DNA of 60,610 nt, taken from Escherichia phage Pondi. Shown one piece after another: positions 1,504-19,177 of this stretch. Location of the stretch: the sequence record OP136151.1; one strand, written 5' to 3'. The translations under genes and the position numbers were made by a program. The notes under the pieces are model-generated. The model was not told where the DNA came from and did no database searches. It saw only the letters and a program-made list of their open reading frames with translations. The first letter of the stretch is position 1. Each line of letters begins with the position of its first letter.

Positions 1504-1586
1504 AATCACTTCCTCCAGATAGGTCTTCCAATGATACATAATAAAAAGGGGTCGCACAAGGCGACCCCAGTTTGGGATGGTGGCTA

Positions 1587-2221: not shown

Positions 2222-2237
2222 TGGGGGCCGAAGCCCC
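2222..2237 (-). promoter_or_regulatory. GC-rich stem-loop with UUCG tetraloop (GGGGGC-UUCG-GCCCCC on the transcript) just downstream of the capsid gene
   Basis: Perfect 6-bp GC stem with UUCG loop between capsid stop (2247) and next RBS; no U-tract, so likely an RNA stabiliser or processing site rather than a strict terminator. Confidence 0.5.
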
Positions 2238-2246
2238 CGATTAAAC

Positions 2247-3218
2247 TTAGGACGCTGAGTCCCAACGGATGATGCGGTTCTGAAGTGCCTGCGGATCGTC
2301 AGCCTGAGACTGGTTGTGAACGATACCGAAACCACCCATGTAGTACCACGCAACACCTTTGGAACGACCGTAGTCGGTAGGCAGTTTACCACGAATCTGT
2401 TCAGGATCGGTAACTGCTTCAGTTACGGTATCGCCACCGAAGAAGAACGCTTCGTCAGACTTACCATTGGTCCAGCCTTTGGACGGAATGTTGGTCTGCT
2501 CAACAAAGCGGCAACCTTCGTATTTGCCGATTTCGCCCAGGCGAATGTTACGCCAGCCGCTTTCAACGTACTTAGACAGTTCTTCAATCTCGTTACGAAT
2601 CGGACGGAAAGTCGTCGGACGCGCCAGAGCGAAGTAGTCGTCACCGTCGTAGCCCGGAATGTTACGCTCTTTCATCTCGTCGATGATAGCTTTAACGTGG
2701 TCCAGAGACAGTGCAGCGTCGTTCACAGTCGCAGTATGGTCACCAGCGGCGGCCACAGCTTCGATGTTCACCTGAGTAGCGGAGGTGCCGCTAACCGGGG
2801 AAGCTACCAGACGAGTCTGGTTGAACTGGCTGTACGCTTCGTAGTCGAGGGTCTTAGCACAGTCGTCTTTCAGAGCGGACTGGATAATGTTCTCAACCGG
2901 AACTTTGGACAGGTTGTCCAGTTTTTTGGTGTACGGTACGGAGTTACCGAACTCGTCGATCTGCAAGGAACCCTGGCGGATTTCGAAGTTGGTTTCTGGC
3001 AGAGCCTGACCTTCTTTCAGACGACCGCCCTGGGTACGTACGTTGGTGAAGATGTCCCAATGGAAAATATCACCGCGACCGTAAGTGAACGCTTCTTTCG
3101 CCGAGCAGAACTGGCGGAAACGCATCATCGGCTGTACTTCTTTACGCAGATACTGACTCAGTTGGTCTGAGTACATGAACCCGCCGAGACGCTCAACGCC
3201 CCACAATTGACCTGCCAT
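2247..3218 (-). CDS. Major capsid protein, 323 aa
   Basis: Position directly after the acidic coiled-coil scaffold gene; AAGGAG RBS; followed by stable hairpin; size typical of HK97-fold capsid proteins; no database check. Confidence 0.7.
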   Translation of the reverse strand: MAGQLWGVERLGGFMYSDQLSQYLRKEVQPMMRFRQFCSAKEAFTYGRGDIFHWDIFTNVRTQGGRLKEGQALPETNFEIRQGSLQIDEFGNSVPYTKKLDNLSKVPVENIIQSALKDDCAKTLDYEAYSQFNQTRLVASPVSGTSATQVNIEAVAAAGDHTATVNDAALSLDHVKAIIDEMKERNIPGYDGDDYFALARPTTFRPIRNEIEELSKYVESGWRNIRLGEIGKYEGCRFVEQTNIPSKGWTNGKSDEAFFFGGDTVTEAVTDPEQIRGKLPTDYGRSKGVAWYYMGGFGIVHNQSQADDPQALQNRIIRWDSAS

Positions 3219-3240
3219 AGTGTTACTCTCCTTTCAACGA

Positions 3241-4521
3241 TTAACGTTTAATTGCTGGGGCGGTTCTGCCCTGCGTCAGACCTGAGAAGGCTGCCAACTT
3301 AGCGTCCATTGAAGACGGGCTGCGGCCACCATCCGGTACTGCTGCTTTTTTCGGCGCTTCGCTTTCACGTTGCGCACCGCTACCCAGCACGGTTTGACCT
3401 ACCTGACTCTTACGAGCTTCAACTGCTGCTGCGCGCGAGTTAACCTGCTGCGTTGTGGTAACCTGTTGACCAGTATAACCTAAAGCCGCTGCCAGTTCAC
3501 GAGCTTCGTTACGTGCCATAGTTGCTGCGCGCACCATGATGTCCAGAGGACGGATGTTGTTATCGCGAGCATTACTTTCACGTACCAGTTGCTGAGCGTA
3601 CTGCGCTGCTTTAGCACTGAGTGCCGGGTTACCGACCACATCTGCATATTGCGGATCAGACTCGTAAGCCTGTGCGTCAACTTGCAGGGAGTGATCCCAT
3701 GCTTTACGGTTTTGCTCTACGATTACTTGCTGAACAACCTGAGTGGTATCAACCTGTGGGATGGCCTGTTGGCGTCCTTTTGCCAGGGTATCTACTAGCT
3801 CGTCCAGTGCGCTATCGTCGCCTTCGTTATAAAGGCGTTCAAAACCTTGTCGCAATTTCGCTTTCAGATCAGGGTCAGCGTCCGTACTGGATGGCTGTTG
3901 AGTCTGTTGCGAGGCCAGTCGTAATTGTTCAAGTTCAGCACGTTCGCGTTCTAAACGCTGGCGTTCTTCTGCGGCCTGGCGCAACCGCTCGTCACCTGCT
4001 TCCAGCTTTTGGGCTGCCGCGATAACGCGTGAAGCATCGACTACTTGAACTTTGCCATTTACCAGAAGTTCAACTTTCTGGTTACCGTTGGCGTCGGTGA
4101 AGAAGCGAGGGGCATTGTTATCCACTTGCGGCGCGGCTTCCTGCTGCACCTGAGCTTCCTGCTCTACCTCTGTTCCTTCTTCCTGTACCTGATTGTCCTG
4201 ACTTTCTTCATCGTTGTCAAGACCGTAAAGGTCGAAACCTTCATCTGCACCTTCAGCTAAGTGCTGACGGCGACGTTCGGCGATGCTGGCGAGGAAGTCT
4301 TCGGAATCTTTTGCCTGAGCGGCTTGGTTTTCGCGCACCCGATCAGAGATACTTTTCTTGGCCTCGGCGGTTTGCTCTACGGTATCCAGATTATCACTGG
4401 CTCCATCGATTTCTTGCTGGGTAAATCCAGCGGCCACGGCTGCTGCGTTGTTCTCTTCAATGACCTGTTGCGGCGATACTTCGGTTGCTTTACGGGTCAT
4501 GGCGTCCTGTTGGATAGTCAT
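3241..4521 (-). CDS. Scaffolding protein, 426 aa
   Basis: Highly acidic, Gln/Glu/Ala-rich with predicted coiled coils (ERQRLERERAELEQLRL); lies between portal and capsid genes; ATGA overlap with upstream gene. Confidence 0.65.
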   Translation of the reverse strand: MTIQQDAMTRKATEVSPQQVIEENNAAAVAAGFTQQEIDGASDNLDTVEQTAEAKKSISDRVRENQAAQAKDSEDFLASIAERRRQHLAEGADEGFDLYGLDNDEESQDNQVQEEGTEVEQEAQVQQEAAPQVDNNAPRFFTDANGNQKVELLVNGKVQVVDASRVIAAAQKLEAGDERLRQAAEERQRLERERAELEQLRLASQQTQQPSSTDADPDLKAKLRQGFERLYNEGDDSALDELVDTLAKGRQQAIPQVDTTQVVQQVIVEQNRKAWDHSLQVDAQAYESDPQYADVVGNPALSAKAAQYAQQLVRESNARDNNIRPLDIMVRAATMARNEARELAAALGYTGQQVTTTQQVNSRAAAVEARKSQVGQTVLGSGAQRESEAPKKAAVPDGGRSPSSMDAKLAAFSGLTQGRTAPAIKR

Positions 4522-4916
4522 GCTGTTTCTCCGTCTTCATCTAACTGCTGGTTGTCTAACTGCTGCTTGCTGCTTTCCTTTTCTTCAATCTGAGCGCCAA
4601 TCGTTTCATAGATTTTGATGACGGTCAGGCAGGCAATCTGTGCCTCTACAATTTCGCTAGTGTTCGCCGGGTTAGCTGTGAGTAATTTCTCAAAGCCTGC
4701 GGTGAACTGCTCGCGAAGGCGCACATCGAAATCTGCGCCCAGCAACGTTTGTGTAAAAAAGTGAGCGGCATCCTCACCGATGTTTATCTTACTGTAAAGA
4801 TAATTGACGGGCAAGGTATCCGACATCAAATCGTCTTGCCGCATGTCAATGTGGTTAATGTTGCGCGCATATATTACATGCGCGCTCGTAGGTGATTTAC
4901 TTGACGTTTGACTCAT
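4518..4916 (-). CDS. Hypothetical protein, 132 aa
   Basis: ORF between portal and scaffold; overlaps portal 3' end by 20 nt. Confidence 0.45.
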   Translation of the reverse strand: MSQTSSKSPTSAHVIYARNINHIDMRQDDLMSDTLPVNYLYSKINIGEDAAHFFTQTLLGADFDVRLREQFTAGFEKLLTANPANTSEIVEAQIACLTVIKIYETIGAQIEEKESSKQQLDNQQLDEDGETA

Positions 4917-7278
4917 TGATGACTTCCTGCTGAGTAGGCGTTACCTGCTGGCCGATTTGCTGGGCCTGCTGCATCGCCGTCTGCTGCAATGAGCTTCCGT
5001 GCTGGAGTGCGGTGGTCTGACGCTTGGTCTTGTCCTGTGCTTCGGCAATCCGTAGCCGGGTTTCATTATCCAGCATAGACAGCAACATATCAAGCTGACC
5101 GCGCTTACCTTCCAGTTCTGCGTCGAGTGCCATCTGAATCAGCTTCAGTTCGCGGTCGGCGGCCAGTTGGTTGGCTTGCTTGGTTAACTCCAGTTCAGCT
5201 TTAATCTGCGCTTCCTGCACGCGACCTTTCGCTTCTTCCTGCGCAGCCTGTACCAGCGGATCAACTGGTGGTTCTGACGGAGGCGGCTCCTGGAAGTTCT
5301 TAGCCAGATTCGGGAAGAATTTACTACCGTCGCCCTGACCGAGTGTTGAGAAGATAGCGCTACCGACGGCTTTGCTATCCATGTTGTCAGCCATGCCCGG
5401 TAACTGCATTACCGTCGTAACACCGTACATCAACGTGTTTACACGCTGTACCGGGTCAGTTGCGCCAATACCGGTATCGACTTTCATCTCAAGCTGTTTG
5501 GTCATGAGATCGTCGGTCAGGTCTTCCACGTTGAGGCGCGGGAAGTATGCCGAGTTGTCGACGGCGATGTGCATGATCGTCTCGTCGTTCTCATAATACT
5601 GAACGGTGAGCATGAACAGTTCCAGCACCGGGCGCACGAAGGTGAACACGAAGGTACGGATGTCGAAGTCGTTCACTTTGGTAGCGGCGTTGCTGAGCAA
5701 CTTCATACCACCGACAGTCTCGTTCATCTCGCGGTTGTTGGCTACAGCCTGGCCGCTGAAGGTACCCTGTGCTTCGTTCATCTCCATAGTCAGGCGCTGA
5801 GTTTCCTCATAGCTGCTACTGGTGACGTCGTTCACTTCCTGCGGGATCAGGTCGCCAGCCGGGTCGCTGGTGAAGATTACACCGCCCGGAGTGGAGCGTG
5901 TCAGAGCGGCCAGGTCGATAGATGCACCGCGACGCGCCAGGTAACGCTTGTTCAGTACGAGCTTAACGTTGTCTACGCGCTGGTTGCTGATTTCGTTCAC
6001 TGCGCGCTGCAACTCGCTACCGATATGGGCTTTGGAGTCCGGCACGTTGTTGTGAGATTCAATCATGCAGGTACCGTAGACGAACGGCAGGCGACCGTGG
6101 TGATAGCGGTCCTTCAGTTCTACAGGCTGCTCTAACAGGAACTGAGTACCCATCATGTGATAGGTGTACCAAAGACCATCACGGCGGACGAACACTTCGT
6201 TAACCATTACAGATTCGTAGCGGACATCGGCGTTGTCGTTGTTGATTGGGTCCGGCTTACCTTCACCGCGCTTAGCCTGCTGCGTTGCGTCGTCTTCCAT
6301 CGCCCAGCGGCACGTCAGGATTTCACCTTCGGAAAGCAGGTTCCACTCGCCGCGTTCCATACGCACCATGACGTCATCAACGGACATCATTTTTCTGTGT
6401 ACGAAATACTTGCCAGTACCGACAACATCGTTCGCTTTCGCGGTTGGGTCGAAGATAAAGTTTTCCGGCAGGATCAGGTCGATGTACGGCTCGTCGTGAA
6501 TAACGTTTTCAGTCTTAGTCGTCTCCAGACCAATCAGGTTACCCGCTTCATCGAATACCGGAGTGTCGGTCGTAGTGGTTGTGGTTTCGCGCCACCAGAA
6601 AACTTTAGCGATTGCTGGCCCATTGATGAATGAGTCCTGCGCAGCACCGATACAAATCGGGTACCAGATTTTATCCAGACGAAGGTTTACGATTTCCTTC
6701 AGCACTGCCGCCGCTTTATCCGCATCCTGGTCGGTTACGTTGCGTGGCGAAATGTGCATGTAGTCATCGTTCAGGAAAAGCGCGGTTGCGATGTCTGCTT
6801 CCCAGCTACGGGAGGCCATGCGGGTTAACGGGCGGAAAACTTTCGAGCGGTTGCGGAACGCTTCGCTGTAATATTTGCTGCCCGGTTCGTGGCGACCTTT
6901 GAACAGGTAAGTGTCGTTGATGTGCTGCGTCTGGTAGCCCTGACGATAGAAGGTGCGCCCGGTGTCATAGCAACGACGACCGAGGTCAATCCACTGGGTT
7001 TCAGACATGCCAGCAACGCCGGAGTCGTCCGGTTGATTATAGGTTTGTTCTTCGGCTTGCAGGACATCGCCTTCCTTCTCGAACTGGGAGAATGAGTCCA
7101 TCTCACCGAAGGATGCCTGATTGATGTCCAGTTCAGCGCCGGGGATAATCTGGTTAGCGCGGTACGGGTCGTCGTTTACCTGCGTAATCCCGCGAGCACC
7201 ACCGCCGCCGTAAGGCGACTGGGTGTCCGGCGCGCGACCAACGAGGGAATCACTGATCCCTTTTTGTGCGTTCGGCAT
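4897..7278 (-). CDS. Portal protein (putative), 793 aa
   Basis: Large ORF between terminase and scaffold/capsid genes, the canonical portal position; GAGGA RBS. Confidence 0.6.
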   Translation of the reverse strand: MPNAQKGISDSLVGRAPDTQSPYGGGGARGITQVNDDPYRANQIIPGAELDINQASFGEMDSFSQFEKEGDVLQAEEQTYNQPDDSGVAGMSETQWIDLGRRCYDTGRTFYRQGYQTQHINDTYLFKGRHEPGSKYYSEAFRNRSKVFRPLTRMASRSWEADIATALFLNDDYMHISPRNVTDQDADKAAAVLKEIVNLRLDKIWYPICIGAAQDSFINGPAIAKVFWWRETTTTTTDTPVFDEAGNLIGLETTKTENVIHDEPYIDLILPENFIFDPTAKANDVVGTGKYFVHRKMMSVDDVMVRMERGEWNLLSEGEILTCRWAMEDDATQQAKRGEGKPDPINNDNADVRYESVMVNEVFVRRDGLWYTYHMMGTQFLLEQPVELKDRYHHGRLPFVYGTCMIESHNNVPDSKAHIGSELQRAVNEISNQRVDNVKLVLNKRYLARRGASIDLAALTRSTPGGVIFTSDPAGDLIPQEVNDVTSSSYEETQRLTMEMNEAQGTFSGQAVANNREMNETVGGMKLLSNAATKVNDFDIRTFVFTFVRPVLELFMLTVQYYENDETIMHIAVDNSAYFPRLNVEDLTDDLMTKQLEMKVDTGIGATDPVQRVNTLMYGVTTVMQLPGMADNMDSKAVGSAIFSTLGQGDGSKFFPNLAKNFQEPPPSEPPVDPLVQAAQEEAKGRVQEAQIKAELELTKQANQLAADRELKLIQMALDAELEGKRGQLDMLLSMLDNETRLRIAEAQDKTKRQTTALQHGSSLQQTAMQQAQQIGQQVTPTQQEVINESNVK

Positions 7279-7288
7279 CTCTTAATCC

Positions 7289-7657
7289 TCAGTTTAAACC
7301 AATGATATTACCACGAATGTCGCGCTTGGCTTCTACCAGTTCATGCTCGCGCATACGTCCACGATGCAGCTTAGCGCGTTCCAGGATTTCACCGCCAGCG
7401 CGGAGCACCAGCTTTTTGGCCGCGACAGGTTCTTCCAGATCGGCAATCATCAACGTAGCGCCGGACTCATAGGACACGTCGCCACACAGGATGTTGACGA
7501 TACCACCCTCAATCTCAGCGTTTACACGCCACAGGTAGCCGGAGTATGCGTTATGCAGGCACTCACCAATGATGGAGGCCAGTTCATAGTTTGCAATCTC
7601 GATGGCGTCACTACCTGTACCGCGCGTGTAAATTACTGCATGGTTAACTGTTGTCAT
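7289..7657 (-). CDS. Hypothetical protein, about 122 aa
   Basis: ATG at 7657 (third codon of track ORF, which begins with TTG) with AAGGA upstream. Confidence 0.45.
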   Translation of the reverse strand: MTTVNHAVIYTRGTGSDAIEIANYELASIIGECLHNAYSGYLWRVNAEIEGGIVNILCGDVSYESGATLMIADLEEPVAAKKLVLRAGGEILERAKLHRGRMREHELVEAKRDIRGNIIGLN

Positions 7658-7832
7658 TATCAATATCCTTAGTCCAACGATAGTCGTGACCCGGTAGCGT
7701 CGGCATCTCGGTCTTCACCTTTCCGTTGTCGAAGACGTACACCGCTTCGGGCGTAGTCAGTCGCTTCGGGTCCAGGCGATTCACGATTTCAGTGAAGCTG
7801 CGGGTTGTGTATGAAACTTGACGTCCTGCCAT
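7644..7832 (-). CDS. Hypothetical protein, 62 aa
   Basis: Small ORF with GGAGGT RBS 6 nt upstream of ATG. Confidence 0.45.
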   Translation of the reverse strand: MAGRQVSYTTRSFTEIVNRLDPKRLTTPEAVYVFDNGKVKTEMPTLPGHDYRWTKDIDNDNS

Positions 7833-7864
7833 AGTACACCTCCGTTAATCAGTGCATGATAACA

Positions 7865-9136
7865 TCACTTTAATTTCTCTTCCAGTTCAGCCACGCGCTG
7901 GGTTAACCGCTTGATTGCCGCCAGTGCGTCGAGCAACATTGGTGTCTGGTCCAGATGATAGTAACCGCCGACCTCTTTAACATACTGCGGATCAATGTCT
8001 TTAATCTGCTGGGAAATCACCCCACGACGCGGCGTGACATCCTCATCATCGTTGAACGTAAAGTTCTTGAACTCCATAGCGTTGACATTAGCCAGCGCGA
8101 TGTCCAGGTCAAGATCGCTACCTACAGTCTTCAGTCGGGAGTCAGACGGGGCCGATGTTGTGATTTGTAGCCATGTTCCCCACGACTGGTTGTTGGTCTG
8201 AATACGCGTAAAGATACGGTTTGATGTGTCGAAGAATCGCTGCTGAAACCACTCGCCGGAAACACCTGTCGCCTTAGCATTACCACGACCTACACCCTGC
8301 GTACATTGAGTGAATACCGATCCGTAGCTTGTCCCGGACACAGGAGGGTTAGCGACAGTACCGCCGATTTGCTGCCATCCTTGCGGTACCGTGTTGAAGT
8401 CAGTGGCGTTCGCTGTCGGTACACTGTTCCCGTCGTAGGCCAGACCGCCGTTTAACCCAATGTACGCCGTACCTGTGCGTGAAGGTTTAGTGAGCGAGAT
8501 AGTCCGGCGTGCGGTGTTGTCGGTACCGTTGGCGAAGAAGAACCAAAGCGCCTCACCGTTGCTTTCAATCAGCGCGCGGCGACCGATGTCTGAGATGTTA
8601 AACGGCGTATGGTCCAGCCACAGACCGGGATAACTGGTCGAGATGGTCTGCGTGTTAGTGAACGTGTTGAATGACAGCGACGCGGCGTTGAGATTGGTAC
8701 GTGCATCTACGGCATTGTCTGCACCGGTACCACCGTTGGCGATCGGGAGAACGCCGGACACGCGGGAGTCGAGCGGCAGACTGCCTACAGTATTCGCCAG
8801 GTCGATAGCGGGGCCAGCGGCTACGCCGTCAAGCCATGCGTGCACGTAGAAATTATTGGAGCGTGCGAGCAGTGAGCCGAGCAACACCCAGTTACCGTTA
8901 ACCGGAGGTTTCTTAGGGAAGTAGGGAGTCTTGTCAAGATAACCAGTCGTGAGAGTGTAGTCAGTAGCGCTGCCGCCGTAGCCCAGCACCATTAGCTGAC
9001 TTACCCAACCGCTGGCCTCGTTATACGTCGGGGTACCGTAGGGAACATAGCCGAGTGCGATTAACTCGTTGACCTTATTGATAACTTGAGGCGTCTTGCC
9101 GGGAATGAAGTAGCCGCCAGCGACTGTTAATTCCAT
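7865..9136 (-). CDS. Tail fibre/tailspike protein with C-terminal intramolecular chaperone (peptidase S74-like) domain, 423 aa
   Basis: Fibre-like motif IANGGTGADNAVDARTNLNA; C-terminal SDSRLKTVGSDLDLD resembles the S-D-x-R-x-K autocleavage motif of endosialidase/T5 L-shaped fibre chaperone domains; terminal coiled coil. Confidence 0.65.
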   Translation of the reverse strand: MELTVAGGYFIPGKTPQVINKVNELIALGYVPYGTPTYNEASGWVSQLMVLGYGGSATDYTLTTGYLDKTPYFPKKPPVNGNWVLLGSLLARSNNFYVHAWLDGVAAGPAIDLANTVGSLPLDSRVSGVLPIANGGTGADNAVDARTNLNAASLSFNTFTNTQTISTSYPGLWLDHTPFNISDIGRRALIESNGEALWFFFANGTDNTARRTISLTKPSRTGTAYIGLNGGLAYDGNSVPTANATDFNTVPQGWQQIGGTVANPPVSGTSYGSVFTQCTQGVGRGNAKATGVSGEWFQQRFFDTSNRIFTRIQTNNQSWGTWLQITTSAPSDSRLKTVGSDLDLDIALANVNAMEFKNFTFNDDEDVTPRRGVISQQIKDIDPQYVKEVGGYYHLDQTPMLLDALAAIKRLTQRVAELEEKLK

Positions 9137-9156
9137 GTCATGTACTCCGTGAATAA

Positions 9157-9170
9157 GGGGCCGAAGCCCC
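9157..9170 (-). promoter_or_regulatory. GC-rich UUCG-tetraloop stem-loop (GGGGC-UUCG-GCCCC), second copy
   Basis: Same hairpin as at 2222..2237, between gene 9178..10014 and the S74 fibre gene. Confidence 0.5.
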
Positions 9171-9177
9171 TATGGTA

Positions 9178-10014
9178 TCACAGCGTGGTAATTAACGAGA
9201 ACACCAGGCCAGCGGCTGTAGCGCCACCCAACATAGCCGGGAGTGCGACTAGTCCTACGTTAACCGATGATGTATCGGTCATCTGAGTAATACGGAGGCG
9301 GGTGCCGGACGGGATGTCAACTGCTGATGTCAGCCCGATGACCTGCAAAACGTTGTTACCACCCGCACCGCGAAGGTTGATATAACGTGCGCTCCCGGCT
9401 GTTGGTGTCCACGTTACGCCGTCCGGTGACGTCTCTACCTGAAAACCCCACGTTACCGCAGCGGAACCGCCAGTAGTGCGACGCACCTGACAAGTTATAG
9501 CCAGAGTACCGACAATGCGTCGCGCTGTGGTGAATATACCTGTGGCGTTGTCCAGCGTACCTAGAGCGGCGTTAGGTAATGCCTGAGCATTGAACACCAC
9601 AACCTGCGGGGTGTTGTTGGCGGTAACGTACTGATTCAGCGCAAGACCTGTAGTAGTGAAGGATGCACGAAACACAGCACTTACCGGACGGTTGACATCA
9701 ACGTTATCGCCGTAAGCCTGAATGTAGCGAGCATGTGCATACTGCACGGGTGAAAGGCACACAGCGCCCGGATTAAGGTCGAGTAATTGATTGACGCGCT
9801 GGGTGAACGATACGCTGTCGGCAGCGTCCACGATAAAATAGTTACAGGCGGGAACCTCGGTGGCGTCGGTATCCAGTGTCATTAGCTGAGTGTAGCGAGC
9901 ATTGAAGCAGACCACGCCGCACACAGGGAACCAGCCCATAGCCTGAGCCGCGTTTACAGAGTCGACGAGTTTGTTAGTGGTTTGCTCGGTGATGAGCTTG
10001 ACGGTAACGGTCAT
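9178..10014 (-). CDS. Hypothetical late protein, 278 aa, hydrophobic C-terminus
   Basis: Start moved to internal ATG at 10014, preceded by GGGAGGG; lies between large terminase and tail fibre genes. Confidence 0.5.
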   Translation of the reverse strand: MTVTVKLITEQTTNKLVDSVNAAQAMGWFPVCGVVCFNARYTQLMTLDTDATEVPACNYFIVDAADSVSFTQRVNQLLDLNPGAVCLSPVQYAHARYIQAYGDNVDVNRPVSAVFRASFTTTGLALNQYVTANNTPQVVVFNAQALPNAALGTLDNATGIFTTARRIVGTLAITCQVRRTTGGSAAVTWGFQVETSPDGVTWTPTAGSARYINLRGAGGNNVLQVIGLTSAVDIPSGTRLRITQMTDTSSVNVGLVALPAMLGGATAAGLVFSLITTL

Positions 10015-10073
10015 TAGCTGGCCCTCCCTGGGCGAAGTGGGGCACTCCATGCGCCCCGTGTGATGAGTATATC

Positions 10074-11705: not shown

Positions 11706-12451
11706 TATTCGCCCCCGTTGCTCTTAAAGTTTGCTTGCAGTCGACGTAAGCGGTCGCGCTGTGTTTCTGCTTCGCCTTGTCCTTGCTCCACGTTATCCCA
11801 GCCTTTGAGGCGTGAGAGTAGCGCACTTGCAGCAATGACCGACTTCGGATCGTATTTACATTGGCCCTCAACTGGTAGACCCGTCAGGTTGTCGAACTCC
11901 TGTTTCAGTTGTAAGCCACGGTCGATGACCTGCCATAGCACGGCTTCGAGATATGCTTTGTTCCTTACAGGTGCGAATAAGCTACGGCCCTTCATGCTCG
12001 CCAGGTAGTCGGCAACGTGAGATGACCGCAATAACTCGGCGGCCTTCTTGTCAGCCAGTTGTTTATTGAATATCTCAAAGCTGGCGGCGGCGGCTGCGGT
12101 GGCGTTCATTCCCCTGAGTACGTTGTTGGCAAAGGATAGCTCGGCGTTATTGAGGTATAGCGCCTTGTTCCTGGCGTCAACAGGCACGGCCTCGGATGAC
12201 TGGAGCGGACTGACCGCCAGATCTTCAGGTTCCAGTGTACTGGTTGCCAGGTGCTGGACTGCGACGGCATGGTTAACACCGCGCTTTAGTCCCCGGTTGA
12301 GTGGTTCCGGCTTGATGATATTCCCGGTTCCGATATGTACGGCGGTCTTAAACTGATAATCATCGAGGCCATACTTTGCAGCCAGTAACGCGTCCGTCAC
12401 TTCGCCATCGAGATAATCAAGAATAAAACTCGCGCGGGTTTCTGGTGTCAT
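11705..12451 (-). CDS. Terminase small subunit (putative), 248 aa
   Basis: First gene of late block, immediately upstream of and translationally coupled to the large terminase; call is positional. Confidence 0.45.
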   Translation of the reverse strand: MTPETRASFILDYLDGEVTDALLAAKYGLDDYQFKTAVHIGTGNIIKPEPLNRGLKRGVNHAVAVQHLATSTLEPEDLAVSPLQSSEAVPVDARNKALYLNNAELSFANNVLRGMNATAAAAASFEIFNKQLADKKAAELLRSSHVADYLASMKGRSLFAPVRNKAYLEAVLWQVIDRGLQLKQEFDNLTGLPVEGQCKYDPKSVIAASALLSRLKGWDNVEQGQGEAETQRDRLRRLQANFKSNGGE

Positions 12452-12550: not shown

Positions 12551-12836
12551 ACCCTGCTCAACTTTTAGTTTTCGCGTAGCGCTGCGTAGATTGGTTACTT
12601 TTTAACCTGCGAAGGTAGGAATCTAAAAGCTAACGACGAGAACTAAAAGCGCGCGAAGATTTCTCGAAGCCTTCTTGAAGAGGCCACCCGCTAGATATTG
12701 CTTGCAGTCACCCTCAATAATTGAGAAACTAATTCTGTGCTTTTTGACCTTTGAATTATTAACAAGCTTTTAGTTAGTTATTATTTACTTCGCGGGTGAA
12801 AAGTAGTTAGTTAAGTATATAAATCTAACTAAAAGC
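12551..12836. repeat. Iteron-like 9-10 bp motif AACTAAAAGC / GCTTTTAGTT in five copies within the long noncoding region
   Basis: Copies read at about 12551, 12621, 12641, 12766 and 12827 in both orientations in a 451-bp gene-free region. Confidence 0.4.
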
Positions 12837-12878
12837 TTGTAAGTTTAAAGAAGCTCAGAAAGCACAGAATTAGTTTCT
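12724..12878. repeat. Composite imperfect palindrome: 20-bp perfect outer inverted repeat (12724..12743 / 12859..12878) and 15-bp perfect inner inverted repeat (12762..12776 / 12826..12840)
   Basis: Arms verified base by base; ends 10 nt upstream of the RBS of the first early gene; candidate origin, operator or terminus-associated structure. Confidence 0.6.
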
Positions 12879-12902
12879 AAATAACCAAAAGGAGTCTACA
12901 AG

Positions 12903-13583
12903 ATGTCAGACGTAAAAGTGCAGGGTGTAATGTTCCTCGATGAAGCTCGCCGTAGAGGCTTCACAACCTACGACGGGAAAGCGTGCCGTAATTGTGGTGG
13001 AGTGCTTCGCTACGTGTCCAATCGGGGATGCGTGGCGTGCAACCTTGAGCATAAGAAAAGCTATGCTGCGTCGGCTGCATTAAAACGTGAGGCTGCTCGC
13101 CAGGTGCGCAACGATGCAGCGGAAGCCGGGGAGAAGCAATATACCGGATCTCCGTGTAAGAAGTGCAACGGTACAGAGCGCTACACTGTCAATGGTGGTT
13201 GTGTGGCTTGCTCTAAGAAACAGGCAACAACCTTAGATAAAGCAAAGCGCGCTAAATATCACTCAACTGATAGCCTGGTTATGTGGGTAAACGAGCCGCC
13301 AGCGCCCAGCGTTGCACATCTATATAAGCTAATCCCTTTCCTGGCCTCCAACCCGGACGGCGGTAACTGGTCGCTACGTTACACCGATGCTCATCACCTT
13401 GCACCTTCAGGCATGAGATTGTTCACGGGGCGTGATGTCCTGGAGCGTCCGCAAATCATGCAGACCATCCGGGCAGACTACACGCTGAAGGGATACCGGG
13501 GCGGACACTTTGACATCGTTCCGCATATCGGCGAGGCCATGACGCAGGCCATCCGCTTAACTAACCTTGCACGGAGTAAATAA
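12903..13583 (+). CDS. Early protein with duplicated zinc-ribbon motifs, 226 aa
   Basis: Two CxxC-x12-CxxC units (CRNCGG...CVAC and CKKCNG...CVAC); AAGGAG RBS; first gene after the noncoding region. Confidence 0.55.
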   Translation: MSDVKVQGVMFLDEARRRGFTTYDGKACRNCGGVLRYVSNRGCVACNLEHKKSYAASAALKREAARQVRNDAAEAGEKQYTGSPCKKCNGTERYTVNGGCVACSKKQATTLDKAKRAKYHSTDSLVMWVNEPPAPSVAHLYKLIPFLASNPDGGNWSLRYTDAHHLAPSGMRLFTGRDVLERPQIMQTIRADYTLKGYRGGHFDIVPHIGEAMTQAIRLTNLARSK

Positions 13584-13584
13584 A

Positions 13585-13902
13585 ATGACGCAATTATGTT
13601 ACCTGAAGACCAACGTCGGACAGATGTATATTCGCGAGGCGTTGATAATGTCGCCAGATGGTAAAGAGTTTCGCTATACCGGGCGCGAGTGGGTCGACGT
13701 TGAACTGTCAATCGTTAACCTGATCAACATGGGGGCGGTTGAGGTAACAGAGGCAGACGTCAAAGCCTACACCACGATACCCCGCGCCGTGTACAGTACC
13801 GACAAAGGCCGCCACTTTGTGCAGGTTGACGGCAAACACCTGTACGAGTTCAACGACGAGCACGACGCTGTGATCTACGCTAACCGCATTAATGGCTTAT
13901 AA
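13585..13902 (+). CDS. Hypothetical early protein, about 105 aa
   Basis: Internal ATG of track ORF with GGAG upstream; abuts stop of previous gene. Confidence 0.5.
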   Translation: MTQLCYLKTNVGQMYIREALIMSPDGKEFRYTGREWVDVELSIVNLINMGAVEVTEADVKAYTTIPRAVYSTDKGRHFVQVDGKHLYEFNDEHDAVIYANRINGL

Positions 13903-13945
13903 CCTATAGGGGCCATCGCGCCCCACCCTTGACAGGAGACACATC

Positions 13946-14239
13946 ATGACTAATCAAATTATCTACGCTGAAGACGTGCGCTACTTCCGCAAACTTGCAT
14001 TGCGCCCCACCCTGGCCGCTATCTGTCAGCAAATCTTCGACGCTGGTTTTGATTGCCGCAACCAGTTCGCCGCACGCCGGGTATTATCGGCGCGTGACCT
14101 CGGCTACTGGCAGGAGTTCATCGCCTGCGCATTGCCAAGTGACTGGTTAGTTTGGGCGGCTGAGGACGTGAGCCGCAACCTTGAAACTGAAATGATGGAG
14201 TATTACAGTGACGCCATCACTGCTTTGCGCAAAATATAA
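13946..14239 (+). CDS. Hypothetical early protein, 97 aa
   Basis: ORF in early plus-strand array. Confidence 0.45.
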   Translation: MTNQIIYAEDVRYFRKLALRPTLAAICQQIFDAGFDCRNQFAARRVLSARDLGYWQEFIACALPSDWLVWAAEDVSRNLETEMMEYYSDAITALRKI

Positions 14240-14374
14240 CAGTCGGGTAACCACGGTATTTAAAATCACCCTCAACGGCGGGGAGTCCCTCGCCACTGTA
14301 GTCAGCCGCATTAAAGCCCAGCGTGACCGGGCGCGGCTGGTAGGCATTCACTTAGCTATAGAGGATCTCATCAA

Positions 14375-14653
14375 ATGAAAACATTAAAAGAGTTTTACCA
14401 GGCATACGCAGCATGGCTTGACGCTGGCGCACCGGAAGACCAGCCGTTTAGTCGAGCATATGGGTTGTGCGACAACCTTTTTACTCGGGGTTGCTACGAT
14501 ATACTGCGAGAGTTAAAGGGCCATTTCAAAAGTGAAGGTTATGATCCTGCTTACCCGTTTGGTGGGTCGGAAGTGTTCGAAACTGAAATGGATAACGAAG
14601 AGATGCACCTTAACCCTGAGCGCATCAAGTGGGTGAAAGACCATGCAAAATAA
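14375..14653 (+). CDS. Hypothetical early protein, 92 aa, paralogue A
   Basis: Shares FY.AYAAWLDAGAP...QPF...YPF...NPERIKWVKDHA with the next gene; GAGGA RBS. Confidence 0.55.
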   Translation: MKTLKEFYQAYAAWLDAGAPEDQPFSRAYGLCDNLFTRGCYDILRELKGHFKSEGYDPAYPFGGSEVFETEMDNEEMHLNPERIKWVKDHAK

Positions 14654-14939
14654 AACATTACAGCAATTCTATAACGCTTATGCCGCATGGCTTGACGCTG
14701 GCGCGCCACACAAGCAACCATTCTACCGCGATGCGGGATTGTGTCATAACCTGGGCAAGTTCGGCGGCGACCGTGACGCTTATATCGAGATGGGTCGCCA
14801 GTTTGAAGCGGCTGGACTTGATTACAAGTATCCCTTTAATGACGGTGAGGGGGATTATCTCGTTAAGTCATACGAGAGCCATCACCATATCAACCCTGAG
14901 CGAATCAAGTGGGTGAAAGACCATGCAAACAATCAGTAA
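14643..14939 (+). CDS. Hypothetical early protein, 98 aa, paralogue B
   Basis: Tandem paralogue of 14375..14653; 3' ends of the two genes share a near-identical 38-nt stretch. Confidence 0.55.
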   Translation: MQNKTLQQFYNAYAAWLDAGAPHKQPFYRDAGLCHNLGKFGGDRDAYIEMGRQFEAAGLDYKYPFNDGEGDYLVKSYESHHHINPERIKWVKDHANNQ

Positions 14940-15099
14940 CATGAAATTGAAGTTCAGCGGTCGCACTGTAGCTCTGATTACTACATTGATTAACGGTCGC
15001 ACTATATACCAGGTGTTGAGTAACACCTACGAGCCATCGCAGCGTGACATGTGGATTGATGCGGTCATCGCTAAAATACTGGAGGGTAAATTTAAATGA
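14923..15099 (+). CDS. Hypothetical small protein, 58 aa (below ORF-track cutoff)
   Basis: ATG at 14923 inside the repeated 38-nt stretch; fills gap; stop overlaps next start as ATGA. Confidence 0.4.
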   Translation: MQTISNMKLKFSGRTVALITTLINGRTIYQVLSNTYEPSQRDMWIDAVIAKILEGKFK

Positions 15100-15350
15100 C
15101 AGAGTTCGAGAAGTGGATCAACAACGCCCACATGACGGACAAGGACAGCGACCCGACGCAGCGCGATAAGGCCAATCCTTACACGCATCCTTACACTAGC
15201 GGCGCGTTTGACCTGCTCAACAGTGAGTTAGTCAAAGAGCTATTAGTCAACGCGTGGTTTGCAGGTCATGAAACGTCGCAGTATTCGCCCAACGCTTACG
15301 GTGACGCAAAGCGCTACGCCCGTGAGGTCATCGAGGATTTAACCAAATGA
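15096..15350 (+). CDS. Hypothetical early protein, 84 aa
   Basis: GGAGGG RBS; ATGA overlap with downstream gene. Confidence 0.5.
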   Translation: MTEFEKWINNAHMTDKDSDPTQRDKANPYTHPYTSGAFDLLNSELVKELLVNAWFAGHETSQYSPNAYGDAKRYAREVIEDLTK

Positions 15351-15946
15351 AAACGTTAAGCCACTATCAGAAACTGCGTGAAGATTACGCGTGCATCATC
15401 TCTAAGAACGCGCCAGCCTGGGAGCTAATCGAGGCCATCGACGACCTGATCAAGCTGATGACGTCTGATGACGGTCGTAACATGGTGGACGTTGCGCCGG
15501 GTCTGGTAATCGAGATCCCGACAGGTTGGACGCTGAATAAACACGACGTAGGTTATGTGAAGTTCACATTGCACGATCAGGGCGGTGGACGCGGCGGTAT
15601 TAGCGAGCGTGAAAACTGTTTCGTGACAACGTTCGACAATATTACACTGGGTAATTTTTCGAACGCCCGGAGCGCCTTCGATTGCCTGAGTAAGCACGCT
15701 ATGAACTCTGTCAATCAGCCGCACTTTCTCGGCGTACCGGTAAACCTGCCTAAAGGCTGGGGTATCAGTATCCATCACGACAGCAACACGATCAGCCTGC
15801 TCGACCATAACGGCTACAGGGTTGCTGCCGCATACCAGAAAATTAAAGGTAATTACGGGATCTGGTGGGAAGGTAAATATTATACCACTTTGAAAACTCA
15901 GCGAGAGGCCATCGAATGGCTTAACGATAAGGCTAACATATCATGA
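15347..15946 (+). CDS. Hypothetical early protein, 199 aa
   Basis: GAGGA-N9-ATGAAAAC initiation context; C-terminal part loosely similar to next gene (IPxGW...T..L.D). Confidence 0.5.
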   Translation: MKTLSHYQKLREDYACIISKNAPAWELIEAIDDLIKLMTSDDGRNMVDVAPGLVIEIPTGWTLNKHDVGYVKFTLHDQGGGRGGISERENCFVTTFDNITLGNFSNARSAFDCLSKHAMNSVNQPHFLGVPVNLPKGWGISIHHDSNTISLLDHNGYRVAAAYQKIKGNYGIWWEGKYYTTLKTQREAIEWLNDKANIS

Positions 15947-16272
15947 AAACTATTGCAGAGATCCGCGCCGCCCTGGTTGAACTGCTTGCTCAGATTGATG
16001 ATGATAACAACTATTCAATCTTTGAGTATTACGGGCAACAGTTGCGCATCCCTAAAGGCTGGTATATGAAGCGCGAAGGTAAGCACACCGTAACGTATAC
16101 CCTCGTTGACGCCAACAACGTAGCGTACGGCAAGGTGCGCAAGACTACCGAGGGTCACGCGTGGGCCTATGTGGACCGCGATCCGGGTGAAGCAGGGTAT
16201 CACGCTACACAACTGGGAGCGCTGCAAGGACTGATAGATCGCGCCTGGGGGTCACATGACACTACACGCTAA
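15943..16272 (+). CDS. Hypothetical early protein, 109 aa
   Basis: ATGA-coupled ORF. Confidence 0.5.
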   Translation: MKTIAEIRAALVELLAQIDDDNNYSIFEYYGQQLRIPKGWYMKREGKHTVTYTLVDANNVAYGKVRKTTEGHAWAYVDRDPGEAGYHATQLGALQGLIDRAWGSHDTTR

Positions 16273-16462
16273 CCAGCTTAAAGGTGCGCCAGGTTATCGG
16301 CGCTACTCATCCATCCCGGCGGCTATGAGTGCCGCTAAGGCGTGGCAACAATCAACGGGCCGTCACTATGGCCTTGTGCAGACCGCAGGCGATGAGATAG
16401 CGATCCGCGTCCACCGCCCTGATAGCAACCTTAAATTTATGTGGAGTACCCGTTATGCGTAA
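16256..16462 (+). CDS. Hypothetical early protein, 68 aa
   Basis: ORF with G-rich RBS; overlaps upstream gene by 17 nt. Confidence 0.4.
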   Translation: MTLHANQLKGAPGYRRYSSIPAAMSAAKAWQQSTGRHYGLVQTAGDEIAIRVHRPDSNLKFMWSTRYA

Positions 16463-16679
16463 AGTAACCGTTAGTCATGCTGTAAAGCAAAGCCTCAAGT
16501 ATCGCAGCGTGCGCCTGCAATTCACGCCGTTCTCCGTGTACCTGTCTTGTCATAACGATTGGGGGTTAACCGTCAATACCTTTAAGCTGGCGGATCGCTG
16601 CTCGTCATACGTTCCTAAACAGGAGCGCCAGAAGTGGGCCGACAAGGTGCTTAAGGCGTATGGGAGACTGACCAAATGA
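16455..16679 (+). CDS. Hypothetical early protein, 74 aa
   Basis: GGAG RBS; coupled to next gene. Confidence 0.45.
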   Translation: MRKVTVSHAVKQSLKYRSVRLQFTPFSVYLSCHNDWGLTVNTFKLADRCSSYVPKQERQKWADKVLKAYGRLTK

Positions 16680-17011
16680 AAACAGCACGCGCTAATATTA
16701 TCAATGCACTGCACGCCCTGGAGAACGGCAAGTCAGCCGCAGAGGTCACGGCGTGGCTTCAGGATGCTATAGACGAGTTAAAACCTGTAGGGCGCGGCGT
16801 ACGCCTGATGCGCAATCCGGTTATCGAGGGTTACAAACTTACACAGGTGCATAATATCGTGTACGTGGAACACCTGGACGGAGACAAGTTTGCGCACTTC
16901 GTTATCTGTCCTGAGAAGGTGACAATCTATCTCAAGGACCGTACCCCGGTAGACGTCAAGACGCTGGAGGCAGCCATCGACTACATAAAATTGGTAATTA
17001 ATTTAAAATAA
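16676..17011 (+). CDS. Hypothetical early protein, 111 aa
   Basis: GGGAGA-N8-ATGAAAAC initiation context. Confidence 0.5.
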   Translation: MKTARANIINALHALENGKSAAEVTAWLQDAIDELKPVGRGVRLMRNPVIEGYKLTQVHNIVYVEHLDGDKFAHFVICPEKVTIYLKDRTPVDVKTLEAAIDYIKLVINLK

Positions 17012-17015
17012 TTAC

Positions 17016-17044
17016 TTGACGCTAAATCTGTTTAGTAGTATCTT
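17016..17044 (+). promoter_or_regulatory. Sigma70-like promoter candidate (TTGACG-17-TATCTT)
   Basis: -35 and -10 hexamers with 17-nt spacer in the intergenic region upstream of gene 17098. Confidence 0.4.
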
Positions 17045-17053
17045 TAATTCATC

Positions 17054-17073
17054 GGGAGGCAACACCGCCTCCC
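17054..17073 (+). promoter_or_regulatory. Stem-loop in the predicted 5' leader (GGGAGGC-loop-GCCTCCC)
   Basis: 7-bp perfect stem about 10 nt after the predicted -10; possible 5' mRNA-stabilising hairpin. Confidence 0.3.
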
Positions 17074-17097
17074 ACCTCAAATAGAGAGAGAAATAAA

Positions 17098-17337
17098 ATG
17101 CAAACTATCATCACTAAATTCCTGGCTCCTACCAATACCCGTGGCGCTCGCATCGTTGCTAAATGCTGGAACGGTAAAGTGACCATTTCTTACCCTCACA
17201 CTGAGATTAAAGAAGCGCACACCGAAGCGGCCAACGCGCTGGTTGCTGACCTGAAAGCGCGCACCGATATTGAGTGGAACATTATCGCCAGCGGTGAAAC
17301 TCCAGACGGTACCGGATTCGCCTTCATCATCAAGTAA
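17098..17337 (+). CDS. Hypothetical protein, 79 aa, first gene of a promoter-proximal unit
   Basis: ORF downstream of promoter candidate and leader hairpin. Confidence 0.5.
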   Translation: MQTIITKFLAPTNTRGARIVAKCWNGKVTISYPHTEIKEAHTEAANALVADLKARTDIEWNIIASGETPDGTGFAFIIK

Positions 17338-17397
17338 GTAGTTTTATCAGGCATCTTGCGGGGTGCCTTATTAAAACCCCTTAACGGAGAAACAACC

Positions 17398-17712
17398 ATG
17401 AAACAGTTGGAAAATATCGCGGCACTGATGGCGGCAGAAAATATCAACATGCTGGATAGCGAGGCGGTGATCGCTTCCCTCAGAAAAACCGTGTTACCAG
17501 TGCATAACATCCGCGTTTACGAAGACGCGCAGTTGTTCGGTAAGCACATTAGCGCCATCAAGCCGGGCGACACCGTGTTACATAACGGCCAGGTGTGCAC
17601 CGTCACAGCCTCCAACCTGTCACGCGGTGACTTCATGGGCGCGCTGTTGTTCGGCGACTCCTACAGCCTGGGTAACAAGCCCGTAATCGTTATCACTAAC
17701 GTGAGATTTTAA
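17398..17712 (+). CDS. Hypothetical protein, about 104 aa
   Basis: Internal ATG preceded by ACGGAG; ATGAAACA context. Confidence 0.5.
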   Translation: MKQLENIAALMAAENINMLDSEAVIASLRKTVLPVHNIRVYEDAQLFGKHISAIKPGDTVLHNGQVCTVTASNLSRGDFMGALLFGDSYSLGNKPVIVITNVRF

Positions 17713-17714
17713 TC

Positions 17715-17984
17715 ATGACTAACATTAAATACCCAACGCCGCAAGAAGCCCTGGCCTATGCAGAGAACACCGGGCGCGCTAACGTGTTGCCGCTCGGCTG
17801 GGTGATAAAGGCTAATAAAGGTCACTCTATTGAGATTGAATTGTATTATGGCGCTCACCTGATGGCGGTCGCTTACAGCGATCACCTGGTGCGGTTCCGC
17901 AGTAAATATGAAACTGTGCAATGTAAAAGTTTTGATGAAGCAATGGGCCAGATTGTTCATCACGCATGGGAGATGGTGTCATGA
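17715..17984 (+). CDS. Hypothetical protein, 89 aa
   Basis: ORF; ATGA overlap with next gene. Confidence 0.45.
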   Translation: MTNIKYPTPQEALAYAENTGRANVLPLGWVIKANKGHSIEIELYYGAHLMAVAYSDHLVRFRSKYETVQCKSFDEAMGQIVHHAWEMVS

Positions 17985-18244
17985 ATACCTTAATGCGTCA
18001 GGCTCCGGCTGATACCGACTGGTCAATCTTTGTATCAAAGGCCATGCGTCACGCAGTAGCTGACCTGGTGGACCTCGACCGACTGGAGCGTTACGACGAT
18101 AATTTTTTTGCGGCTATCTTCCCGCCGCACCAGTTTACTACGACGCGCCGCCTGTTAGCTATGCACGGCATCAAGTCCACAGTAGCCAACCGCGCTAAGA
18201 TAATGCGCGAGGCTGCCCGGATGGTGAAGGAGGCCAGCCAGTGA
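17981..18244 (+). CDS. Hypothetical protein, about 87 aa
   Basis: ATG at 17981 overlapping upstream stop (ATGA). Confidence 0.45.
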   Translation: MNTLMRQAPADTDWSIFVSKAMRHAVADLVDLDRLERYDDNFFAAIFPPHQFTTTRRLLAMHGIKSTVANRAKIMREAARMVKEASQ

Positions 18245-18299
18245 GCACTACATTAACAATCGGTTTCTATGTAACGCTGGGCTATCTTTCTTTAACGTT

Positions 18300-18674
18300 G
18301 TGGGGGTTCCTGTGAACAACTTGCCGAGATTCATCGCCGCCGTGGCACATATTACCGACTTTCCGATTGAGCGTAGCAAGTACGGCAGTATGCAGGATGA
18401 GATGTACCAGGTGTACACACTCGACGATTTAACGTTAATCGGTTCTACCACGTTTGGCGGCTATCTGATCACTGTTCATAAAGGGCGCAGTGTTCTTTAC
18501 GAACTTCGGGTGTACGGTAACAATGCCATCTATCACCACACGTTACAACGAGCTATCAAGCTGGATAAACGTACCGGTAAATGGGTAACTTACGTTAAGT
18601 TAACCGAAGGCATGGCATTTACTAACCTTTATGATGCAATGATGCACTGCGGGGGTACTCATGGCTGGGTTTAA
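18300..18674 (+). CDS. Hypothetical protein, 124 aa (GTG start)
   Basis: ORF; start uncertain. Confidence 0.4.
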   Translation: MGVPVNNLPRFIAAVAHITDFPIERSKYGSMQDEMYQVYTLDDLTLIGSTTFGGYLITVHKGRSVLYELRVYGNNAIYHHTLQRAIKLDKRTGKWVTYVKLTEGMAFTNLYDAMMHCGGTHGWV

Positions 18675-18969
18675 TGTATTCGCAAGCGCGGCGCTTAAAC
18701 TGTCAATCGCGCTGTTTATTCTGTCGACGCTGTACATCATGACATGTGACTACGGCACCTTTCACGACATCATCACACAGTTAAGGCGGTTGTAATGCAA
18801 GGAATAATTACAGGTCTTGCCTTCTCCCTGACGTTGTGGGTAATGTCAATGGTTGCAGTATGGGCGGTCCTCCGGTTCGTGTTCGGTCTTCCGGTAGACC
18901 TCTGGCGTTAATTTTATGGTCGACGTGGTGGCGGCCTCCTTTCCACTACAAATAATAGGAGCTTCAAAC

Positions 18970-19155
18970 ATGTCTAAATCTATCATCGCTATCATCCTGG
19001 CTACTCTTCTGGCTGGTTGCTCTGCTAACGTCGGGTACAATCCCAACGTATCCGGGCAAACCGGGCGCGCTGAGTCCGACTCACCTAACGCGCAGCAACG
19101 CGCCGAGAACGCTCAGACGTCCCGTGATGCTGCGGCTAAGGGCGGCGAGTGGTAA
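18970..19155 (+). CDS. Small outer-membrane lipoprotein, 61 aa (candidate superinfection-exclusion protein)
   Basis: MSKSIIAIILATLLAGCSANV: signal peptide plus lipobox LAGC with Ser at +2; AGGAG RBS; followed by GC hairpin. Confidence 0.6.
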   Translation: MSKSIIAIILATLLAGCSANVGYNPNVSGQTGRAESDSPNAQQRAENAQTSRDAAAKGGEW

Positions 19156-19163
19156 TGAAGGGC

Positions 19164-19177
19164 GGGGCTTCGGCCCC
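19164..19177 (+). promoter_or_regulatory. GC-rich UUCG-tetraloop stem-loop (GGGGC-UUCG-GCCCC), third copy
   Basis: Same hairpin as at 2222 and 9157, here on the plus strand after the lipoprotein gene. Confidence 0.5.

Follow-up and report, generated by a model that had tools for sequence, protein, structure and literature searches.

Intercistronic hairpins in which a UUCG loop is closed by a C-G pair were originally reported from phage T4 (Tuerk et al. 1988 PNAS 85:1364, as cited in PMC3972237), and UUCG and GNRA loops are likewise given as favoured in Escherichia coli terminators (d'Aubenton Carafa 1990, as cited in the same source). Here we consider three hairpins of this kind in the DNA of Escherichia phage Pondi (sequence record OP136151.1; the window, in what follows, is the whole stretch of 60,610 nt that was analysed), where they follow the major capsid gene, a fibre-like gene and a small lipoprotein gene. 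Other described systems bear on their function. In E. coli operons protective 3' structures set stoichiometry, as do the repetitive extragenic palindromic (REP) sequence of malE-malF and the structures of menBCE (Dar & Sorek 2018, PMC5927463). In phiX174 the signals T_J, T_F, T_G and T_H, all placed after structural genes, block 20-70% of transcription (bioRxiv 10.1101/2020.03.05.979765). In T4 genes 38 and 25 the ribosome-binding sites are split, a hairpin shortening the spacing of 22 nt to 5 nt in the former and that of 27 nt to 11 nt in the latter (PMC3014915). For the Pondi hairpins we favour, with a probability of roughly 0.55, a combined 3'-end model in which they delimit the preceding cistron at its 3' end and protect that end.

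The window contains three exact copies of the 14-mer GGGGCTTCGGCCCC, at 2224-2237 (minus strand), 9157-9170 (minus strand) and 19164-19177 (plus strand), and 100 dinucleotide-preserving shuffles contain none. The looser pattern SSSS-CTTCGG-SSSS finds only the same three sites (shuffle mean 0.23), and even when up to two mismatches are allowed the shuffle mean is 0.37, three matches being reached in 2 of the 100 shuffles. An earlier reading of this DNA made from its letters (the sequence-only reading) had announced three copies of the hairpin at gene boundaries, and this count is borne out; two of its positions, 9157..9170 and 19164..19177, were exact, and the third, 2222..2237, was off by 1-2 nt. 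The full stem-loops are as follows.

2223-2238, minus strand: hairpin 1, GGGGGC-UUCG-GCCCCC, 6 bp, all G-C, free energy -12.9 kcal/mol
9156-9171, minus strand: hairpin 2, AGGGGC-UUCG-GCCCCU, 6 bp, free energy -11.2 kcal/mol
19164-19177, plus strand: hairpin 3, GGGGC-UUCG-GCCCC, 5 bp, free energy -9.6 kcal/mol

Each stem is Watson-Crick paired and ends in a UUCG loop with a closing C-G pair, a tetraloop of exceptional stability, and folding prediction, which the sequence-only reading had proposed as a check, places all three hairpins in both the minimum free energy and the centroid folds of 100-nt contexts. All three are intergenic, stand 6-8 nt past a stop codon and carry UUCG on the coding strand of their own block, so that the sense orientation relative to the local transcript asserted earlier holds at every site. 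The flanks of the three copies are unrelated to one another, and the repeated unit is therefore the hairpin of 14-16 nt alone.

The G-C-rich stem-loop of an intrinsic terminator is present at the three sites and its 3' U-rich tract is absent, again in agreement with the sequence-only reading: the tails 3' of the stems, AAAUUGAAGG, UAUUCACGGA and AAACUAUGGC, contain no usable U-tract, and the U-tract scores of sites 1, 2 and 3 are 0.33, 1.65 and 0.17, respectively, compared with 4.12 for the canonical terminator at 1548-1568. These scores come from a d'Aubenton-Carafa-type d-score, which was positive for one of three obvious terminators of the phage; because of this weak performance on the phage's own terminators only its U-tract term is used, as a relative measure. 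A scan of the whole window against Rfam gave no matches. Pentamers resembling the RNase E motif (RN|WUU-like) lie near site 1 only, the motif being short and common by nature.

The phage to which the window is most readily compared is PTXU04 (genus Xuquatrovirus, a 61.6-kb podovirus), with 94% identity over the structural module, followed by HelliStehle_Bas95 (hereafter Bas95) with 82%, the window's first 20 kb having been compared in both cases; judged by these identities, the window is a Xuquatrovirus-like E. coli podophage. The genes and signals that adjoin the hairpins are listed below, SD denoting a Shine-Dalgarno sequence and HTH a helix-turn-helix protein.

2247..3218, minus strand: major capsid protein gene, with Phage_capsid and PHROG major head protein matches
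2003..2203, minus strand: 66-amino-acid gene downstream of hairpin 1, orthologue of the PTXU04 virion protein gp11
9178..10014, minus strand: fibre-like gene upstream of hairpin 2, its C-terminal part matching tail-fibre PHROGs
7865..9136, minus strand: tail fibre gene with a Peptidase_S74 chaperone domain, downstream of hairpin 2
18970..19155, plus strand: 61-amino-acid lipoprotein gene upstream of hairpin 3, with lipobox LLAGC and SD AGGAG
19157..19162, plus strand: SD-like GAAGGG adjoining the 5' side of hairpin 3, its putative role drawn by analogy with T4 genes 38 and 25
19183..19377, plus strand: 64-amino-acid Cro/C1-type HTH gene downstream of hairpin 3

At site 1 the capsid stop codon TAA (2249-2247) is followed by a gap of 8 nt, hairpin 1, a spacer of 6 nt, the SD AAGGAG (2216-2211) of gene 2003..2203 and its ATG at 2203. 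The capsid protein has 100% amino acid identity with PTXU04 gp10, the protein assigned to the major band of the virion (PMC6563267). Site 2 is built in the same order, the stop codon TGA (9180-9178) being followed by 6 nt, hairpin 2, 7 nt, GGAG (9148-9145) and, at 9136, the start codon ATG of the S74 fibre gene. At site 3 the lipoprotein stop codon TAA (19153-19155) is followed by 8 nt, hairpin 3, 5 nt and the ATG of the HTH gene at 19183. The start codon of this gene is fixed by conservation of its N-terminus in Bas95, and no SD stands at the usual distance before it; the GAAGGG element lies 20 nt from the ATG in the linear sequence, a distance that becomes 6 unpaired nt once hairpin 3 is folded. 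As regards annotation of the same locus, ATG 18970, which has the SD AGGAG, is the true start of the lipoprotein gene, and the start of the longest open reading frame (ORF), 18916, is not the real one; and in PTXU04 the gene PTXU04_00070 (record 53504-53755) is annotated from 53755, through hairpin 3, its likely start being ATG 53698, just past the hairpin.

In the light of the described systems, the three elements belong, to judge by their form and placement, with the C(UUCG)G hairpins found between cistrons in T4-type phages, a classical group that the sequence-only reading did not mention. They resemble it in the closing pair and loop, the G-C-rich stem, the sense strand and the place after the stop codons of structural genes. 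The nearest parallel is Acinetobacter phage Acj9, a T4-type phage found by similarity search with site 2, in which UGGGGCUUCGGCCCCU (record 111028-111063) stands 4 nt past the stop codon of gp18 (tail sheath) and before the gp19 SD, lacks a U-tract and has a GGGGC-UUCG-GCCCC core identical to that of the window, so that its layout of stop codon, hairpin, SD and AUG without a U-tract is the layout found here. In T4 itself, hoc is followed by AAGGGGC-UUCG-GCCCCUU (stretch L200, 25165-25182; T4 record, about 110165), and inspection of T4 DNA shows a UUCG-capped terminator after gene 23 (major capsid) and tetraloop hairpins without a U-tract after genes 18 and 19. Unlike the T4-type phages, however, the window belongs to an unrelated lineage, that of a Xuquatrovirus podovirus, and uses one 14-mer three times; the sharing of a minimal hairpin after structural genes by Acj9, T4 and the window is convergent use. 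The role of those T4 examples that lack a U-tract is itself not fully settled.

The 3' stem-loops of malE-malF and menBCE offer a functional comparison, since they too are stable structures just past the cistron that is to accumulate, conserved, and present several times per transcription unit. The window likewise has a stable structure 6-8 nt past the stop codon that is conserved beyond its sequence, although the bacterial protective structures in many cases exceed this size (REP) or are located within the following ORF, whereas those of the window are minimal hairpins of 14-16 nt in spacers of 27-43 nt. The phiX174 signals are alike in being weak 3' signals after capsid-type genes, used by host RNA polymerase and giving nested transcripts, but their efficiency has been measured, and at sites 1 and 3 of the window a U-tract is virtually lacking. 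Only site 3 is comparable to T4 genes 38 and 25 with their split ribosome-binding sites, in that a distant SD-like element is brought near the start codon by a hairpin; in contrast to those genes, hairpin 3 also stands at the 3' end of the upstream lipoprotein gene and co-occurs with it.

All three hairpins are found at orthologous places in PTXU04, and two of them, hairpins 1 and 2, in Bas95. Hairpin 1 is identical in both genomes: in Bas95 six of the eight positions of the spacer between stop codon and stem differ, and the stem-loop is identical at 16 of 16. At site 2 the hairpin and the SD together are identical at every position but one, an island amid sequence that has diverged in Bas95, where the counterpart of the upstream gene is not detectably homologous and is a 'head fiber' gene; since the hairpin and SD are the sole conserved stretch there, they lie at a module boundary in the fibre region. 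In the same region of Bas95 (4700-4900; window 9120-9200) an extra small gene follows the hairpin. At site 3 PTXU04 keeps the hairpin, its SD-like element reading AAAGGG, and in Bas95 the hairpin and the lipoprotein gene are both absent, the HTH gene having an ordinary GGGAG SD before a GTG start codon. The lipoprotein position of Bas95 (about 50395-50568; window 18970-19155) is occupied by a different small gene with a lipobox-like FALIGC and no trailing hairpin. Here one cassette for a small envelope protein seems to have been exchanged for another, upstream of the conserved HTH gene; a similarity search for the lipoprotein cassette in other phages matched PTXU04 only.

The capsid site could be followed further, in relatives of the capsid gene gathered from IMG/VR and from metagenomes, which comprise 23 distinct loci. 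At 14 of these a hairpin of -10 to -22 kcal/mol begins 4-22 nt past the capsid stop codon. No relationship is seen among their stems (GGGGGC, GGGCGC/GUGCCC, GCGGGG, GGGGCG, GGCCGG, GGCGGG, GCCCCC and others), and the loops include UUCG (five loci), GAAA, GUAA, GCAG, UUAG and several of 5-8 nt; a strong U-tract follows none of the 14, and partial U-rich tails are seen in L055 (ACUUUUAAC), L046 (UUCCUUCCUC) and L053 (UGUUUUGG). These relatives keep the hairpin in its place after the stop codon and differ greatly in how far it lies from the following SD. Since structure and position are maintained while the stems are unrelated, the capsid site points to selection acting on RNA structure and not on sequence. 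In L046 the UUCG loop is kept with a flip of a G-C to a C-G pair and with a G-U pair that can form on the sense strand only; G-U changes with the same strand bias occur in other hairpins of the genome. When covariation was counted formally in the five capsid-site sequences that could be aligned, 100% of positions were paired, with one compensatory pair and one G-U pair. For site 2 the comparison is narrower: neither L046 nor L055, retrieved with the capsid query and 10-kb flanks, has a UUCG hairpin at the site-2 position, L046 having an ordinary U-tract terminator after its fibre gene, and a TerL-based search of IMG/VR returned only PTXU04 and distant phages, with no close relatives for site 2.

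Beyond these relatives the exact 14-mer is found in more than 120 stretches of IMG/VR. Among the matches listed, its tails range from long U-tracts through to none, an arrangement of the type stop codon, hairpin, AAGGA is frequent, and UUCG falls on the locally coding strand 41 times and on the opposite one 7 times (p 6e-7, by a crude test of ORF coverage).

Given these data, the sequence of events that we infer for protection of the upstream 3' end would be as follows. Host RNA polymerase would mostly read through the hairpins, because they lack a U-tract, with weak termination at most. The polycistronic mRNA would be cut further downstream by an endonuclease, and the host 3'-to-5' exonucleases PNPase and RNase II would then chew back the new end and stall at the hairpin, such that the upstream message would outlive the downstream one and give more of the upstream protein. 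At 6-8 nt past the stop codon the stem would stand just outside the footprint of the terminating ribosome. A minor co-transcriptional contribution by leaky termination is plausible as well, most so at site 2 and in the relatives with U-rich tails. The proposal of the sequence-only reading that the hairpins are RNA elements setting differential expression, for example as mRNA stabilisers, is consistent with their sense-specificity and conservation, with the unlike hairpins at the capsid site and with the absence of a U-tract; decoupling, which it named as well, may also occur.

A number of observations nonetheless weigh against such protection. The remaining 9 of the 23 capsid loci have no hairpin, the next SD following directly after the stop codon, and the hairpin is therefore dispensable; the covariation count is thin, being equalled by 92 of 500 shuffles. 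According to work reported by Spickler and Mackie in 2000, stems of 5-6 bp are near the lower limit at which PNPase and RNase II stall in vitro. In addition, the lipoprotein of site 3 is not obviously a protein in high demand, and no transcriptomics of PTXU04-like phages was found in the literature searched. Finally, gp11 and gp12 of PTXU04 are virion proteins (PMC6563267), and because the genes downstream of hairpin 1 thus encode virion proteins, a large step in expression at this place is not obviously needed.

Since E. coli RNA polymerase needs a U-tract for efficient release, the tails AAAUUG at site 1 and AAACUA at site 3, with their low U-tract scores, make it rather unlikely that the hairpins act chiefly as leaky intrinsic terminators, at which a minority of host RNA polymerases would be stopped and transcription would fall stepwise after the capsid, fibre and lipoprotein genes; moreover, none of the three is called either by a consensus terminator scan of the window or by the ARNold-based annotation of PTXU04. 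Attenuation of this kind is nevertheless what one would expect of UUCG-capped G-C stems, which are typical of terminators (PMC3972237, citing Tuerk 1988 and d'Aubenton Carafa 1990), and it would accommodate the continuum of tails that accompanies the 14-mer among the IMG/VR matches listed, the partial U-rich tails of L055, L046 and L053, the tail UAUUCAC at site 2 and the phiX174 terminators after structural genes, which hold back no more than 20-40% of transcription (bioRxiv 10.1101/2020.03.05.979765). A role in translation, whereby the hairpin would organise the downstream ribosome-binding site, bridging a split SD at site 3 and insulating the SD or uncoupling the translation of neighbours at sites 1 and 2, seems doubtful in view of the capsid-site relatives, in which the distance to the next SD varies and the position after the stop codon does not. 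It draws its strength from site 3, where the fixed ATG of the HTH gene lies 5 nt from the hairpin with GAAGGG directly 5' of the stem, where Bas95, which lacks the hairpin, has a normal SD, and where the device would be exactly that of T4 genes 38 and 25 (PMC3014915), as well as from sites 1 and 2, where 6-7 nt separate the hairpin from the SD and the two are kept as a unit in Bas95. Yet the site-3 arrangement occurs in two closely related genomes only, so that its conservation says little, and the hairpin travels with the upstream lipoprotein gene and not with the HTH gene; because it comes and goes with the lipoprotein gene, a role at the 3' end fits equally well.

If, on the other hand, the palindromes served at the level of DNA, as junctions of recombination modules (as has been proposed for the stem-loop cassettes of T4-type phages) or as protein-binding or cruciform sites without function in RNA, one could understand why hairpin 2 lies exactly where Bas95 has a non-homologous upstream gene and why hairpin 3 is gained or lost with the lipoprotein cassette. 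This is improbable, for the non-palindromic TTCG is always on the coding strand, at three of three sites across a strand switch and in 41 against 7 cases in unrelated contigs, the G-U substitutions keep pairing in the sense RNA only, and the capsid site keeps structure while replacing sequence, the opposite of the pattern expected at a site of recombination or protein binding. Least probable is processing by RNase III, which the sequence-only reading had also entertained, in the manner of the R sites of T7, which often have an internal loop. The intercistronic position in a lytic coliphage would suit it; E. coli RNase III, however, needs about two helical turns, or about 20 bp, and processing by it is unlikely because the stems have only 5-6 bp, which their surroundings do not extend to a long duplex in the 100-nt folds, and the Rfam scan is negative. 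This part of the earlier proposal accordingly finds no support.

Four further candidates were rejected. A REP-like element, a bacterial interspersed mosaic element (BIME) or another mobile repeat does not fit, similarity ending at the stem-loop and the flanks being unrelated. An N4-type hairpin promoter for a virion RNA polymerase would have a 3-nt loop and serve early genes; here no polymerase domain was found in the proteins tested, the loop has 4 nt and two of the sites belong to the late module. Readthrough or bypassing of the capsid stop codon is countered by a second in-frame stop codon at once (TAA GTT TAA) and by gp11 being a separate virion protein, and CsrA binding sites by the lack of GGA in the loop.

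As extensions of a phage RNA signal type long known in T4, hitherto unannotated here, the hairpins are for that reason an ordinary finding, and they open no new mechanism, tetraloop hairpins after phage structural genes having been known since 1988. What they provide is a set of unannotated regulatory features for a little-studied coliphage genus, including a hairpin at the 3' end of the capsid gene that is conserved by position across the whole clade. Moreover, PTXU04 is now a model for functional genomics (CRISPRi-ART), for which a map of hairpins aids guide design, the annotation of start codons and the interpretation of polar effects.

The three UUCG hairpins do not stand alone. Intergenic DNA, which makes up 3.6% of the genome, is 6-8 times richer in strong hairpins than coding DNA (p ~2e-5 to 7e-5), and the window holds at least four further conserved sense-strand intergenic hairpins without a U-tract. 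Those listed here are followed by the terminators of conventional type.

37193..37208, plus strand: GGCCCC-GCAA-GGGGCC, GNRA loop, no U-tract, just after the gene for a Gp2.5-like single-stranded DNA-binding protein (SSB), 36143..37183
17054..17073, plus strand: GGGAGGC-AACACC-GCCUCCC, no U-tract, pairing kept in relatives through G-U changes, on the sense strand only
25113..25130, plus strand: GGGCGC-AAUUCC-GCGCCC, no U-tract, conserved, upstream of the PhoH gene
13909-13924, plus strand: G-C-rich hairpin without a U-tract at a gene boundary, kept in PTXU04
10039-10057, minus strand: G-C-rich hairpin without a U-tract at a gene boundary, kept in PTXU04
1548..1568, minus strand: canonical intrinsic terminator, an 8-bp stem followed by UUUUUAUUAU, two genes downstream of hairpin 1
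28319-28338, both strands: bidirectional terminator (A-tract, stem, T-tract) exactly at a convergent junction of strand blocks
43446-43466, both strands: bidirectional terminator of the same build, exactly at a convergent junction of strand blocks

The hairpin after the SSB gene is identical in PTXU04 and Bas95 in spite of diverged flanks and is the same kind of element as the UUCG hairpins; those at 17054-17073 and 25113-25130 are also kept in both genomes, with G-U changes or loop substitutions. The terminator at 1548-1568 is annotated as such in PTXU04, the annotations of PTXU04 and Bas95 containing U-tract terminators only, or none. The phage thus has ordinary U-tract terminators too. The UUCG hairpins represent a signal of another grade.

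The genes are arranged in five strand blocks.

1-12451, minus strand: block 1, packaging, fibre and head genes
12903-28313, plus strand: block 2, small early genes
28327-34046, minus strand: block 3
34040-43458, plus strand: block 4, replication and lysis genes and a CsrA homologue
43455-60610, minus strand: block 5, tail genes and a 2205-amino-acid LPD38 polyvalent protein

No RNA polymerase domain was detected in the 2205-amino-acid protein or in the other window proteins tested, and two published annotations of PTXU04 list no RNA polymerase (PMC6563267, PMC11879866); because no phage enzyme was detected, transcription by host RNA polymerase is assumed throughout. The large protein itself (44166-50783, minus strand) shows a C-terminal LPD38 domain only and has no sequence relative in the PDB; its PTXU04 homologue gp25 is reported to be essential, with function unknown.

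Several genes of the window relate to RNA. That at 23289-23918 (plus strand) encodes an Rv2179c-like 3'-5' exoribonuclease domain (E 5e-35), which may act on RNA or on DNA, and others encode a PNKP-like HAD phosphatase (22565-23059, plus strand), PhoH (25151-25846, plus strand) and the CsrA homologue (43192-43458, plus strand). That the hairpins belong to a phage strategy of RNA turnover together with the Rv2179c-like protein (23289..23918), the PNKP-like phosphatase, PhoH and the CsrA homologue is a quite improbable idea; were it true, the phage would speed the 3'-end-dependent decay of host mRNA and of its own low-priority mRNA, and the capsid, fibre and SSB cistrons would be shielded by UUCG- or GNRA-capped stems impassable to the phage nuclease.

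In the last block, finally, TGCCGCTGCCGTGGCG and GTGGCGCTGCTGGCGGCGTTAC recur in two adjacent tail genes, 55282..56898 and 56895..58520, both on the minus strand (repeats at 56197-56275 and 57744-57859 in plus-strand coordinates), which suggests a tandem pair of paralogues or a common domain.

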